Source of the DNA: Oscillospiraceae bacterium
Lineage (GTDB): Bacteria; Bacillota; Clostridia; Oscillospirales; Ruminococcaceae
Direction of reading: 5' to 3'
DNA: 32,000 nt
Assembly: GCA_017436575.1 (NCBI GenBank)
Contig: JAFSCU010000003.1
Location: 63,073 to 95,072 of the forward strand
The position numbers were made by a program, and so were the translations under genes. Shown here one piece after another: positions 10,066-13,682 of the stretch (the stretch's first letter is position 1; the number at the start of each line of letters is the position of its first letter). A model generated the notes under the pieces. It saw only the letters and a list, made by a program, of their open reading frames with translations, made no database searches and had not been told where the DNA came from.

Positions 10066-10094
10066 TAAAGAGAATTTATTATGCACTTTGTAAA
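10066..10094 (-). promoter_or_regulatory. candidate alternative-sigma (TcdR-family-type) promoter of the giant hydrolase gene
   Basis: The minus strand reads TTTACA (10094-10089), N16, then CTCTTTA (10072-10066). The same architecture occurs at three other genes of the locus. The -35 element begins 8 nt after the sigma gene stop codon. Confidence 0.55.
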
Positions 10095-10101
10095 TACTAA
10101 T

Positions 10102-10650
10102 CTATAAATAATTTGATTTTAATTTTTTTAATGCGTTAAGTTTACATTGATTTATGTATTGCCTTGATACTTGCTTAATTTCTGCAATTTCAGATATCGA
10201 ACGTTTTTCATAATAAAACATTTTGATTGTGTCATATTCATTTTCCGTTAAAAATTCCTTCATATCATTAAAAAATAGCAAAGTATAGTTATCTATTACC
10301 GGATTTGCAGCATCAATATATTCTTCAACATTTGTCTCATCATCTGTAATTTCTAAAGTATAATTCTTTATATCTTGAATCTTTTTTGATAATTTAAGAT
10401 ATTTGCTATTGATAGATTTTTTAATATATGACAGATAATACTTGTCCTCTATATGAGCAAGATCTTTCACACTAAGTTTTTTAATAACTTCAATCAAAGA
10501 CACCTGTAAATCATGATATGCATCCTCATATTCTAACATGAAAGAATATTTTTTAAGCAATGGCTCGAACATTTCTAACAGTTCCAATAGCGCCTCATTG
10601 TTTTCTCTTGATTGCTTTATCAATAAATAAATTTTATTTTCCAATACCAC
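10102..10650 (-). CDS. alternative RNA polymerase sigma factor, TcdR/UviA/BotR/TetR-like (group 5 sigma-70 family)
   Basis: About 180 aa and very AT-rich. The region-2-like segment is LLELLEMFEPLLKKYSFMLEYEDAYHDLQVSLIEVIKKL, which resembles the TcdR N-terminus as I recall it. The region-4.2 HTH is EKRSISEIAEIKQVSRQYINQCKLNALKKLK. There is no ATG start: the ORF-track start at 10650 is GTG, and the TTG at 10644 is better spaced from AGAAGG. Confidence 0.8.
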   Translation of the reverse strand: MVLENKIYLLIKQSRENNEALLELLEMFEPLLKKYSFMLEYEDAYHDLQVSLIEVIKKLSVKDLAHIEDKYYLSYIKKSINSKYLKLSKKIQDIKNYTLEITDDETNVEEYIDAANPVIDNYTLLFFNDMKEFLTENEYDTIKMFYYEKRSISEIAEIKQVSRQYINQCKLNALKKLKSNYL

Positions 10651-10665
10651 ACCTTCTTTAATGAG

Positions 10666-10694
10666 TAAAGAGTGTGTATTGTCAAAAATGTAAA
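10666..10694 (-). promoter_or_regulatory. candidate autoregulatory promoter of the sigma gene
   Basis: The minus strand reads GTTTACA-TTTTTGACAATACACA-CTCTTTA. This is the same TTTACA-N16-CTCTTTA arrangement seen upstream of both hydrolases and the holin. The inverted repeat ACAATAAA-N5-TTTATTGT (10697-10717) abuts the -35 element. Confidence 0.5.
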
Positions 10695-10824
10695 CAACAA
10701 TAAAAAATATTTATTGTAAGTTAATATAAAATTAACAAAAAGTAGTTGTTATATAAATAAAATCGTTCTACGATATATTTAATTTGTAATCAAATAATTT
10801 TTACAATTTATAATGTCGCATAAC

Positions 10825-10853
10825 AAAAAGAGGTAGCAAAAGCTACCTCTTTT
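10825..10853 (-). terminator. Rho-independent terminator downstream of the xre-like gene
   Basis: AGAGGTAGC-aaaa-GCTACCTCT (10829-10850), flanked by AAAAA and TTTT, so it could act in both directions. Confidence 0.75.
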
Positions 10854-10913
10854 ATATCTATTATTTGTAAACTAAATGTTACTATGCTTGTTATATATTA
10901 CAGTTGTATAAAA

Positions 10914-11177
10914 CTACTCAGCTATATCTTCAGGCTTTATATACACTAAAATATCAGAAATTTGACAATCTAATACATAACATAACTTTGCAAGAATATC
11001 CAAATCCATTCTTTCTATTTGACCGTCACACCATTTTGTCATAAGTTTGTGACTAACATTTATTCGTTTTGAAACTTGATTTCTGTTCAGTTTACGCTGG
11101 TCAAGAACATCTTTTAATAGAAAGTCTACCCTGCCATAATCACCTTTTAGTTCTATAATTGTTTTTATATCAGCCAT
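10914..11177 (-). CDS. Xre-family helix-turn-helix transcriptional regulator (87 aa)
   Basis: The start is assigned to the ATG at 11177 (MADIKTIIELKG), with GAGGTG 6 nt upstream; the ORF-track start at 11243 has no RBS. The HTH is LNRNQVSKRINVSHKLMTKWCDGQ, followed by LDILAKLCYVLDCQISDIL, which is typical of short Xre/HTH_26 proteins. Confidence 0.8.
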   Translation of the reverse strand: MADIKTIIELKGDYGRVDFLLKDVLDQRKLNRNQVSKRINVSHKLMTKWCDGQIERMDLDILAKLCYVLDCQISDILVYIKPEDIAE

Positions 11178-11332
11178 ATGGTTCACCTCGTATATAGTAT
11201 ATACAATAGTACCATTTTTTAATATTCGTTTGTTTAATACCATATTATATGATATAATATTGTATAGTATAGTATTATATAATCATACTGCAATTTTTAG
11301 TTACATTAATTATATACTTCGTAACTGTTTAA

Positions 11333-11361
11333 TTGTTACGATATTTTTATTTTGTTATAAT
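11333..11361 (+). promoter_or_regulatory. sigmaA-type promoter with extended -10, upstream of 11396..12259
   Basis: TTGTTA (11333-11338), a 17-nt spacer ending in TGT, then TATAAT (11356-11361). The TTTACA-N16-CTCYTTA motif is absent here. Confidence 0.4.
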
Positions 11362-12259: not shown

Positions 12260-12267
12260 TTTTATTG

Positions 12268-12300
12268 AAAAACGCTGATGCAAAATGCATCAGCGTTTTT
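12268..12300. terminator. bidirectional Rho-independent terminator
   Basis: Perfect 15-bp arms AAAAACGCTGATGCA / TGCATCAGCGTTTTT lie between convergent genes. The stops are at 12257-12259(+) and 12303-12305(-). Confidence 0.85.
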
Positions 12301-12302
12301 AT

Positions 12303-13505
12303 TTATCCTAACATATAACCATATGGAAGAATTGAGGCCATTCGTGTGTTAACATTAGCGGTATCAGATTGTGCAGTTTTTTCGCCTTCTGTAACTTCAA
12401 AATGCAGATGACTGCTGTCCGCATCACCAACATCGCTTTGGTAACCAATAACTGCTCCCGCAGGAACTTCCTGATTAACGCCATATTTATGACCTGTCAT
12501 ATGAACATAGTTAAAAGTAACACCCATAACAGCATTATAAATACTAAAAACGCTACCGCCAGATTTAGTAACTTTCCCACCAAATAAAGCTCTGATTGGT
12601 GCCATATCTGGTCCCTGTATATCTACGCCATTATGACAAACACTGTTTACAGTCCCATATCTCTTCTCACCAAACAAATAGTAATATTTGTGGGTGTCTG
12701 GAATAGATGTACCTGAAGGGTATACTTTTTCTATAAAAGTATTAATAGCCATTTTTATTTTTGATACAGTATCATCAGCATTATTAGAAAAATATGTACC
12801 GTCCGGTATGGAAGAACCTGCATTCATCTCGCAATCTTCTTCAATAAAGTTCTCTGTTGATTTAGTGCAGTCAGGAATATTGTGGACAGTTATTAATCCT
12901 GTCGCCGTAGGCGGAGTTGTATTTCTTGCCAAAATGCCTACATATTCAGTTGATGGATTTGATGGTTCGGATGGTGTCGTATTTTCGACTACACTTTCAA
13001 CCGGCACAAGCCACCATGTCTGGTATGCCGCTTTAGAGGAATCAAAAGGCTGCCATCTAACATCAGCGCCATTAGATGTGCCGGTAGCAGTAAGATAAAG
13101 GTCATTGTCTGCATTATTTCTGTAACACTGAATTCTATACAGGTTTTCTGAAGCATTAATTGTTCTGAAGTTAATTTTAGAATCTTCATCATTACCGCTG
13201 ACCTGATAAATATCACAGTTACCAGCATTATTATTGCCATAATAGTAATCAAGGCCAAAAGCAGTATTACCAGCACAAAGAATTCTTGCAAACCCATCGT
13301 ATACCATTACTTTCCACTGCATATCTGCACTCCAGTCAAGAGAATATACATTTACATTTCTATTGTTATAGTGAGAGTTGCTAACTCCAGCAGTATTAAG
13401 CGCGAGAGGTCTAACCTCTTTATTAAGAATTTTCTGATTATATGCAGCATCACCTGTTGCACACAATGGGATAATATAATAAGTTTTTCCATTCTGATAA
13501 GCCAT
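12303..13505 (-). CDS. ricin-type lectin domain fused to an M23 (LytM/lysostaphin-type) peptidoglycan endopeptidase, no signal peptide
   Basis: RBS AAAGGAGA. The N-terminal ~170 aa form a beta-trefoil (DMQWKV, ADVRWQ, YQTWWL) homologous to the N-terminal module of the giant hydrolase. A Pro/Thr/Ser linker follows. The C-terminal M23 motifs are CHNGVDIQG (HxxxD) and SSHLHFEV (HxH). No signal peptide or TM helix. Confidence 0.9.
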   Translation of the reverse strand: MAYQNGKTYYIIPLCATGDAAYNQKILNKEVRPLALNTAGVSNSHYNNRNVNVYSLDWSADMQWKVMVYDGFARILCAGNTAFGLDYYYGNNNAGNCDIYQVSGNDEDSKINFRTINASENLYRIQCYRNNADNDLYLTATGTSNGADVRWQPFDSSKAAYQTWWLVPVESVVENTTPSEPSNPSTEYVGILARNTTPPTATGLITVHNIPDCTKSTENFIEEDCEMNAGSSIPDGTYFSNNADDTVSKIKMAINTFIEKVYPSGTSIPDTHKYYYLFGEKRYGTVNSVCHNGVDIQGPDMAPIRALFGGKVTKSGGSVFSIYNAVMGVTFNYVHMTGHKYGVNQEVPAGAVIGYQSDVGDADSSHLHFEVTEGEKTAQSDTANVNTRMASILPYGYMLG

Positions 13506-13546
13506 AATTTAAATCTCCTTTTGTTTTATTTGTAAAGCAATTTTCA

Positions 13547-13574
13547 GTATCTGCAGCTACTTTTTTGCCTTACA
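13547..13574 (-). promoter_or_regulatory. conserved leader box, second copy
   Basis: The minus strand reads TGTAAGGCAAAAAAGTAGCTGCAGATAC. See 10032..10060. Confidence 0.5.
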
Positions 13575-13579
13575 CTAAA

Positions 13580-13608
13580 TAAGGAGATTTATTGCTGTAA
13601 TTTGTAAA
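13580..13608 (-). promoter_or_regulatory. candidate alternative-sigma promoter of the lectin-M23 gene
   Basis: The minus strand reads GTTTACA-AATTACAGCAATAAAT-CTCCTTA. The distance from the -35 element to the ATG is exactly 103 nt, the same as for the giant hydrolase gene. Confidence 0.55.
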
Positions 13609-13653
13609 CCAATTATTTATAATTAAGTTTACTGAAAAAATTTCAATTCTTTA

Positions 13654-13682
13654 TTTCCAAAATCATAAATTACCTCTCTTTA
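13654..13682 (+). promoter_or_regulatory. candidate alternative-sigma promoter of the holin gene
   Basis: TTTCCA (one mismatch to TTTACA), N16, then CTCTTTA. The 13-nt string CTCTTTAATATAT is identical to the one in the giant hydrolase promoter. The promoter is divergent from the M23 gene promoter. Confidence 0.45.

Follow-up and report, generated by a model that had tools for sequence, protein, structure and literature searches.

The promoter type and the circuit design that concern us here have already been described for the group-5 (or group V) sigma factors TcdR, UviA, BotR, TetR and TcsR. Genes of this group were autoregulated in all the examples examined and are positioned upstream of their targets, and their promoters are alike among themselves and unlike the sigma-70 consensus (PMC4885068). 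An SRQ signature in region 4.2 was proposed as a marker of the TcdR-related group, and this region was tied to a TTTACA -35 element (PMC4031146). Sigma factor, holin and endolysin genes also accompany both the large clostridial toxins and the bacteriocin Bcn5 (PMC9527704). Here we describe a related locus in a 32,000-nucleotide (nt) stretch of an Oscillospiraceae bacterium genome (assembly GCA_017436575.1, contig JAFSCU010000003.1, positions 63,073 to 95,072; hereafter the window, numbered from 1), where the gene of a TcdR/UviA-type sigma factor of 180 residues (10102..10644, minus strand) is clustered within 9 kb with genes for a holin, an Amidase_2 protein and an M23 peptidase. A promoter-like motif, TTTMCA-N16-CTCYTTA, precedes each of these genes and, judging from the sequences compared below, the four sites are very likely promoters read by RNA polymerase carrying the local sigma factor.

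An earlier sequence-only reading of this DNA had listed the four copies, and direct reading confirmed them all (10066-10094, 10666-10694 and 13580-13608 on the minus strand, 13654-13682 on the plus strand), each with the same spacing of 16 nt. All are intergenic and oriented toward the adjacent gene. First, the sigma gene is preceded by GTTTACA-N16-CTCTTTA (10666..10695, minus strand), an exact match proposed to be autoregulatory, which ends 22 nt 5' of the TTG start codon. Second, the genes of the two wall hydrolases follow exact matches as well, ATTTACA-N16-CTCTTTA for the larger one, hereafter the giant hydrolase (10066..10095, minus strand), and GTTTACA-N16-CTCCTTA for the M23 hydrolase (13580..13609, minus strand). 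Third, the holin site, ATTTCCA-N16-CTCTTTA (13653..13682, plus strand), matches the degenerate pattern and is divergent from the M23 promoter. The window has these four matches and no more, whereas only 0.03 were expected in its 32 kb from dinucleotide-preserving shuffles and none of 100 shuffled windows had more than one, and widening the spacer to 14-19 nt gained no further TTTMCA/CTCYTTA site in the window. Two neighbouring genes had been assigned ordinary promoters, and these are indeed consensus matches, TTGTTA-17-TATAAT with an upstream TG (11333-11361) for the gene at 11396..12259 and TTGACA-17-TATAAT upstream of the gene at 28946..30169.

The downstream element of the four sites had been called unlike TATAAT, which is correct; it matches the downstream elements of UviA- and TcsR-type promoters. 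On pIP404, GTTTACA-N16/17-CTTTTTA occurs four times: uviA and a divergent amidase gene are each preceded by one copy, and the bacteriocin gene downstream of uviB by two. On pCS1, GTTTACA-N16-TTTTTTA stands ahead of tcsH, and the uviA-like locus of C. tetani has CTCATTA and CTTCTTA as downstream block. Given these blocks, that of the window therefore fits a family pattern C-T-x-x-T-T-A. The link made there between TTTACA and the -35 of TcdR-type promoters in the sequence-only reading agrees with the published account (PMC4031146) as well as with the pIP404 and pCS1 sequences.

The motif is kept well beyond the window. In the close relative L002/L003 (related loci carry L numbers), whose sigma factor is 93% identical, both the sigma and the giant-hydrolase copies are present. 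For a more distant comparison, we used 28 loci from species-representative genomes of Anaerocolumna, Lachnospiraceae, Oscillospiraceae and other Clostridia, with sigma factors 34-47% identical to ours. In these 255.6 kb TTTACA-N16-CTCTTT was found 33 times against 0.07 expected, and when the spacer was varied from 10 to 23 nt the two blocks were found 33 times at 16 nt, twice at 17, twice at 23 and never at any other length. Bases that the search pattern had left free were conserved too, with G before TTTACA at 42 of 43 sites, T before CTCTTT at 37 of 43 and A after it at 30 of 43, and the spacer between the two blocks was unconserved. The distance from the end of the motif to the sigma start codon is 17-24 nt in 22 of the 28 loci, and three more loci have one-base variants at the same place (TTTACT-N16-CTCTTTA or GTTTACA-N16-CTCTCTA). 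At the sequence level, autoregulation is suggested by a motif copy before the sigma gene both here and in most of the distant loci. The remaining distant copies lie ahead of peptidoglycan hydrolases that are devoid of signal peptides and belong to many unrelated folds (Amidase_2, Amidase_3, M23, Phage_lysozyme2 with PG_binding_1, Rv2525c-like glycosidase and NAGPA). Because it is conserved before sigma and hydrolase genes across these 28 loci, the motif is more than a local duplication.

The whole four-promoter layout recurs in L038/L039 (sigma 37-38% identical), where the sigma, lectin-Amidase_2, lectin-M23 and Phage_holin_4_1 holin genes each have their own copy. The L038 holin has the canonical GTTTACA-N16-CTCTTTT, divergent from the hydrolase promoter as in the window. 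Holins of the same family (Phage_holin_4_1) were found in 19 related loci, in most of them directly 3' of the sigma gene, and these neighbours together with the canonical L038 copy back the inclusion of our holin in the regulon despite its TTTCCA. The proposal of a mini-regulon made of the sigma factor, the two hydrolases and the holin is therefore supported at the level of sequence comparison between distant loci.

We also scored the window with a weight matrix built from 41 sites of the distant loci only, leaving out the window sites. The four sites ranked at the top, with scores of 21.5 (M23 hydrolase), 19.0 (sigma), 14.7 (holin) and 12.1 (giant hydrolase), the next score being 7.1. Several observations weigh against this interpretation. 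First, the scores of 14.7 and 12.1 are inside the range of the best shuffled-window matches (mean 8.0, maximum 17.3). Two near-invariant positions of the consensus are altered in the holin site (A for G, and TTTCCA for TTTACA) and one in the giant-hydrolase site, whose score is lowered because A replaces G ahead of TTTACA; the L002 ortholog has GTTTACA at the corresponding site. These are the weaker two of the four sites and, since their scores overlap the shuffled range, they rest on position and on the orthologous loci. Second, the two hydrolase promoters belong to one duplicated promoter-leader cassette and are not independent observations. Third, on the short contigs L041-L048, which have no sigma gene, homologous lectin genes keep the leader described below, and TTTCCA lies 18 nt, not 16, from a downstream block reading GTCTTTA or CTCCTTA (L041 1085-1200 and 2898-3004, likewise L042-L048). 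Fourth, the sigma protein scores 30.3 against the NCBIfam cut-off of 42.9 for the general sigma70-ECF (extracytoplasmic function) model. As to a possible co-variation between sigma subclade and downstream block, L023, L028 and L033 have the downstream variant CTGTAGA, as the sole copy on the contig and before the sigma gene, and one of these sigma genes is a pseudogene.

The sigma gene most likely starts at TTG 10644, and its mechanically called open reading frame (ORF) extends to GTG 10650. Pfam Sigma70_r4 covers residues 134-178, and a weak TIGR02937 match spans residues 23-179. The protein has the small group-5 format of ~180-190 residues with regions 2 and 4 only. Region 4.2 reads VSRQYINQ, against TSRQWINR in UviA, so that the SRQ signature is present; it is also found in most of 25 aligned relatives, its serine being nearly invariant. 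The conserved block FxPLLKKYA..YEDAYxDLQ of the family aligns with UviA as well, and over 171 residues the sigma factor shares 35% identity with UviA of pIP404 (E 3e-14). By tblastn, the best plasmid-borne relatives, all at 30-35% identity, included uviA of pIP404 and its counterparts on related C. perfringens plasmids, a uviA-like gene of C. tetani with a BhlA/UviB holin gene behind it, and the sigma gene beside tcsH on P. sordellii pCS1 plasmids. A sequence search of the PDB with the sigma factor gave no match. HMMER found 418 relatives at E<=1e-10 among 1.84 billion cluster representatives, and the family is large and mostly unnamed. Taken together, these sequence features support membership of the group formed by TcdR, UviA, BotR and TetR.

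The proteins behind the other three promoters are two lectin-fused hydrolases and a holin. The giant hydrolase (1537 residues; 5378..9991, minus strand) combines some five ricin-type lectin repeats with an Amidase_2 domain (residues ~822-954 in the numbering of the 1550-residue mechanical ORF) and ~580 C-terminal residues of unknown fold by Pfam. Its likeliest start is ATG 9991, in agreement with the alignment to the L002 ortholog (63% identity) and with an AAAGGAG placed 7 nt upstream; the alternative ATG 10030 falls within the leader. We found neither a hydrophobic N-terminus nor a window resembling a transmembrane segment in this protein, hence no signal peptide. Its C-terminal part (5381-7129, minus strand; 583 residues in the PDB query) matched nothing in Pfam, PHROG or the PDB and contains no hydrophobic segment, and we consider it an unknown domain on a probably exported protein. 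A terminator-like hairpin that reads on both strands (5330..5352, minus strand) lies 3' of the gene. The lectin-M23 peptidase (400 residues; 12303..13505, minus strand) matches Pfam Peptidase_M23 and RicinB_lectin_2 and is equally without hydrophobic N-terminus, signal peptide or membrane segment. The coding regions of the two hydrolases share only ~30% protein identity, and the lectin repeats number one to five per hydrolase. The holin (141 residues; 13716..14141, plus strand; likeliest start ATG 13716, mechanical ORF from GTG 13704) matches Pfam Phage_holin_4_1 (E 2.8e-29) as well as NCBIfam TIGR01593 "toxin secretion/phage lysis holin" and a PHROG holin.

With these products in hand, the closest described relative is the uviA-uviB-bcn locus of pIP404. 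Both loci have a group-5 sigma factor of ~180 residues (35% identical, with SRQ) and four two-block sites, those of pIP404 lying before the sigma gene, the bacteriocin gene (twice) and an amidase gene, and both associate a sigma factor, a holin and a wall hydrolase with an exported protein that has no signal peptide (PMC9527704). The related locus L013 even repeats the pIP404 order, in which uviA-uviB are followed by the bacteriocin gene: a small UviB/BhlA-like holin (~4125-4345, plus strand) comes after the sigma gene, then a terminator, a promoter, a leader and a lectin protein. The sigma clade thus uses either holin family. The differences are nevertheless clear. The downstream block of the window is CTCTTTA or CTCCTTA, whereas that of pIP404 is CTTTTTA, and its spacer is strictly 16 nt. 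Its holin is of the Phage_holin_4_1 family with its own promoter, not BhlA/UviB after the sigma gene, and its cargo consists of two lectin-fused peptidoglycan hydrolases without similarity (E 1e-5) to the 606-residue partial ORF downstream of uviB. Moreover, the window has no LexA box near the sigma gene, whereas pIP404 has CGAACATATGTTCG upstream of uviA, and the element in the window is conjugative. The locus works like a Bcn5 locus but is not one, as it has no Bcn5-family bacteriocin and its holin is not BhlA/UviB. As in the sigma-holin-endolysin modules of clostridial toxin and bacteriocin loci (PMC9527704), sigma, holin and peptidoglycan hydrolase genes are clustered here with predicted exported proteins that have no signal peptide, the two hydrolases themselves, and export would depend on the holin.

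The locus can also be compared with the TcdR/TcsR toxin loci (C. difficile PaLoc, P. sordellii pCS1), in which the sigma factor is autoregulated and an endolysin gene or a fragment of one lies at the locus (PMC4885068, PMC9527704). As in these loci, a group-5 sigma gene lies upstream of its target in the same direction, the -35 is TTTACA, and the holin matches the TIGR01593 toxin secretion family. Unlike them, the window has no glucosylating toxin, its large products being hydrolases; no TcdC-like anti-sigma gene was found in it, and sigma identity is ~30%. A third comparison is with class III bacteriocins, such as the M23 peptidases lysostaphin and zoocin A and the phage-lysin-like proteins of Lactococcus, which are secreted proteins that combine a catalytic domain with a targeting domain and are encoded on mobile elements. 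The hydrolases of the window likewise join an M23 or amidase domain to a targeting domain on a mobile element, and their killing activity is a prediction. Lysostaphin and zoocin A are Sec-exported, whereas the hydrolases of the window have no signal peptide, a holin is co-regulated with them and a dedicated sigma factor would control all.

Based on these comparisons, the circuit may work as follows. Region 4.2 of the sigma factor, with its SRQ signature, would recognise GTTTACA at -35, and the (T)CTCTTTA block about 16 nt further on would be the target of region 2. Transcription would then begin some 6-8 nt past this block. The copy before the sigma gene would create a positive feedback. With its start codon only ~22 nt past the downstream block, the sigma gene would give an mRNA whose leader is very short and begins at or just before the Shine-Dalgarno sequence, and this short 5' arrangement is conserved across the clade. 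The sigma transcript, having no terminator, could continue into the 4.6-kb lectin-amidase gene, which has its own motif copy 7 nt past the sigma stop codon and would thus be under feed-forward control. Here the sequence-only reading had put the hydrolase promoter 8 nt after the stop codon with no terminator between; the gap is in fact 7 nt (stop 10104-10102, TTTACA from 10094), and we likewise found no terminator-like hairpin there. Autoregulation and read-through into the giant hydrolase gene both fit the sequence. The back-to-back copies would drive the lectin-M23 peptidase and the holin, and the latter would be the likely exit route for the two signal-less hydrolases. Once released, these could serve as bacteriocins that degrade the walls of competitors, or they could lyse the producer itself. 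Recognition by the local sigma factor, the start sites, autoregulation, read-through, holin-dependent release and the biological role are what we infer from this arrangement.

In addition, both hydrolase genes share a leader hairpin, an element absent from the sequence-only reading. The promoters and leaders of the giant and M23 genes align closely from the -35 to the ATG, and the coding sequences diverge at once. Starting 6 nt past the downstream block, the hairpin is formed by UGUAAGGCAA...UUGCUUUACA with an apical GUA/UAC stem and the 8-nt loop GCUGCAGA. In the giant hydrolase leader (10016..10060, minus strand) it reads UGUAAGGCAA...GCUGCAGA...UUGCUCUUACA, with a minimum free energy of -12.2 kcal/mol (z -2.5), and the same type of hairpin in the M23 leader (13531..13574, minus strand) reaches -13.3 kcal/mol (z -3.0). 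The 14-mer GTAGCTGCAGATAC occurs in two places only in the window, which are the two hydrolase leaders. The same element is found upstream of lectin-protein genes, at an offset of 6-7 nt, in L002 (8019-8065), L009 (~6600-6645), L013 (~4470-4520) and, in two copies, L041 (~1095-1145 and 2908-2960). The L041-type lectin genes are 82% identical to the N-terminus of the giant protein; only four homologs of this lectin N-terminus were found, on short contigs, and they provide extra leader copies without sigma context.

The loop GCUGCAGA is invariant in all seven distinct leader sequences, from loci down to 38% sigma identity, and the inner stem varies from AGUA/UACU or CGUA/UACG to AACU/AGUU or AGCU/AGUU. 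RNAalifold kept 12 pairs, of which 4 show compensatory changes in these seven distinct sequences from few lineages, and such a small sample is suggestive of a conserved leader structure. A second type of leader, a stem enclosing the conserved GC-rich GGCGCGCGACATTT, lies upstream of PG_binding_1 hydrolases that have the same promoter motif, in L006 (3588-3640), at the same relative position in L007, L010, L012 and L016, and in L029 (minus strand, downstream of the motif at 5869); it is common to Anaerocolumna-type genomes and an Oscillospiraceae genome. This second hydrolase class of other genera thus has an analogous hairpin, with a GGCGCGCGACAU loop. No hydrolase leader matched Rfam, either in the window region (E<=1) or in 29 related loci (gathering score). 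Scans of contigs with exact patterns gave a single match to GTAAGGC-N4-9-GTAGCTGCAGATAC in metagenome contigs, in L036, which lies within an unrelated GC-rich coding region and was rejected as chance, and no promoter plus leader in viral contigs.

A 5'-terminal hairpin could simply stabilise the mRNA. The invariant loops argue for sequence-specific recognition, and the leaders could, for example, offer sites for an RNA-binding regulator, engage in loop-loop pairing by means of the self-complementary CUGCAG core, or act in stability or antitermination. With considerable reservation, one may picture the group-5 promoters as a first layer of control, the leaders as an undescribed family of cis-regulatory RNAs, and the gut Lachnospiraceae/Oscillospiraceae sigma clade of ~400 clusters as a widespread, uncharacterised sigma-holin-lysin antagonism system. 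If this were true, the leaders would gate the output of potentially self-lethal wall hydrolases after transcription has started, and the antagonism clade would be related to the regulators of clostridial toxin loci.

The role of the released hydrolases is where an alternative survives best. The circuit could operate as proposed and serve controlled lysis of the host cell, as a domesticated phage lysis cassette that releases DNA or other contents or that serves the conjugative element. A holin, an amidase and an M23 peptidase together are indeed what a phage lysis cassette contains, our holin matches a lysis family of PHROG, four sigma relatives are on contigs classed as viral, and the module lies beside conjugation genes; even for Bcn5, lysis versus non-lytic export is treated as open (PMC9527704). 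However, one to five lectin repeats and a size of 1537 residues are unusual for endolysins, no phage structural genes were found in the window, and a constitutively promoted membrane protein and lipoproteins stand beside the hydrolase genes as immunity genes would. None of these points is decisive, and we consider host lysis possible but doubtful. Antagonism is favoured because of the lectin repeats, the 1537-residue length of one hydrolase, and the placement, like that of immunity genes, of the membrane protein at 11396-12259 and of the lipoproteins.

A different factor might also read the motif, either a second alternative sigma factor encoded elsewhere or a DNA-binding activator. Further sigma factors are indeed found near some related loci, with an ECF-type one directly upstream in L038 and several in L004. 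Yet the sigma factor studied here is the only gene common to all motif-bearing loci, and the motif precedes it in most of them. Furthermore, two asymmetric blocks at a fixed spacing around a free spacer are built like a sigma promoter rather than like a dimeric operator, and the characterised family has the same -35 block and the same SRQ signature (PMC4031146), which makes another reader improbable. That the repeated motif merely reflects shared descent, with no function of its own, would suit the regions upstream of the giant and M23 genes, which form one duplicated cassette from -35 to ATG ahead of proteins ~30% identical. But the sigma and holin sites have only the two blocks in common, with different spacers and flanks, and the same blocks recur with unrelated spacers ahead of non-homologous hydrolases in the distant loci, so we give this explanation very little credence. 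Finally, ordinary sigma-A promoters with an off-consensus -35 and an incidental second block are just as hard to credit. In their favour, TTTACA equals TTGACA at five of six positions, and sigma-70-like matches abound in AT-rich intergenic DNA (51 found against 48.9 expected). Against them, a consensus scan that requires A at position 2 and T at position 6 of the hexamer 17 nt downstream lists none of our sites, TCTTTA and TCCTTA having neither base there. Over the 28 distant loci, conservation of the second block equals that of the first, with a strict 16-nt spacer, and true consensus promoters stand next door for comparison. We thus retain the local group-5 sigma factor as the reader of the four sites.

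Several neighbouring genes may bear on how this module is switched on or tolerated. Upstream of the sigma gene and in the same orientation lies the gene of an XRE/Cro-type helix-turn-helix regulator (87 residues from ATG 11177; 10914..11177, minus strand) that matches Pfam HTH_26 and a PHROG transcriptional repressor. The same gene precedes sigma in L002/L003, and a terminator-like hairpin (10826-10853) separates it from the sigma promoter; we infer that this regulator is a candidate upstream switch for sigma. No LexA box (GAAC-N4-GTTC) was found near the sigma and XRE genes, the total in the window being at chance level, and among inverted repeats around these two genes none recurs at the sigma promoter, to which no operator could be assigned. 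An ATCGT/ACGAT repeat upstream of sigma has no conserved counterpart in L002. The AT-rich region between the divergent XRE and 11396 genes (11178-11395) contains several palindromes (e.g. TATACAATAGTA / TAATATTGTATA), partly conserved in L002, which are probably XRE operators. Elsewhere, three related loci have c-di-GMP-I riboswitches of 59-73 bits (L014 3661-3752, L022 726-820 and L030 3538-3627, all on the minus strand). They are on the opposite strand, 300-500 nt upstream of sigma, and serve a divergent small gene; they may have some connection with the sigma module.

The gene at 11396..12259 (plus strand), transcribed from the housekeeping-type promoter given above, encodes a membrane-anchored protein of unknown family (287 residues) with an N-terminal hydrophobic anchor. 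It had no match in Pfam, NCBIfam or PHROG and no similarity to the 267-residue protein at the analogous position in L038, and one could speculate that it is an immunity protein. A lipoprotein of unknown family is encoded next to the giant hydrolase gene (3970-5301, plus strand), and three lipoprotein paralogs (31-33% identity) flank the L002 ortholog (4484-5602, 5721-6710 and 12815-13951, minus strand); all are candidate immunity or accessory proteins. Between 15.3 and 32 kb, the window has genes for a sortase, a VirB4-like ATPase, PrgI, a coupling protein, a relaxase and NikA. This places the module, as cargo, on a conjugative element whose host is a Clostridia-type bacterium of low GC content. 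Subdoligranulum and Monoglobus replicons encode coupling proteins 66-77% identical to the one found here, and a megablast of 5300-14200 against plasmids gave no match. At 30225-30295 (minus strand), two direct copies of CCGAAATGGGAATAAACTT lie directly upstream of, and overlap, the TTGACA-17-TATAAT promoter of the AAA_14/DUF4143 ATPase gene (28946-30169), and these paired copies look like operator sites.

To our knowledge, almost all group-5 sigma factors known so far come from pathogens, in which their targets are the botulinum, tetanus, C. difficile and C. sordellii toxins and a single C. perfringens bacteriocin. Our analysis places the same circuit, in which a holin accompanies a presumably self-activating sigma factor and a TTTACA-type promoter, on mobile elements of commensal-type gut Clostridia, where it would drive signal-less hydrolases and not toxins. 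The understanding of how such promoters work is unchanged by this finding. What is gained is a consensus sharply defined across the family, together with a conserved leader hairpin that is as yet unexplained. The consensus, GTTTACA-N16-(T)CTCTTTA, can be used for regulon prediction in hundreds of uncharacterised genomes, and the hydrolases are candidate wall-degrading antimicrobials with lectin targeting domains. Such loci also suggest, plausibly, what cargo was ancestral to the sigma-holin modules by which large clostridial toxins are exported today.

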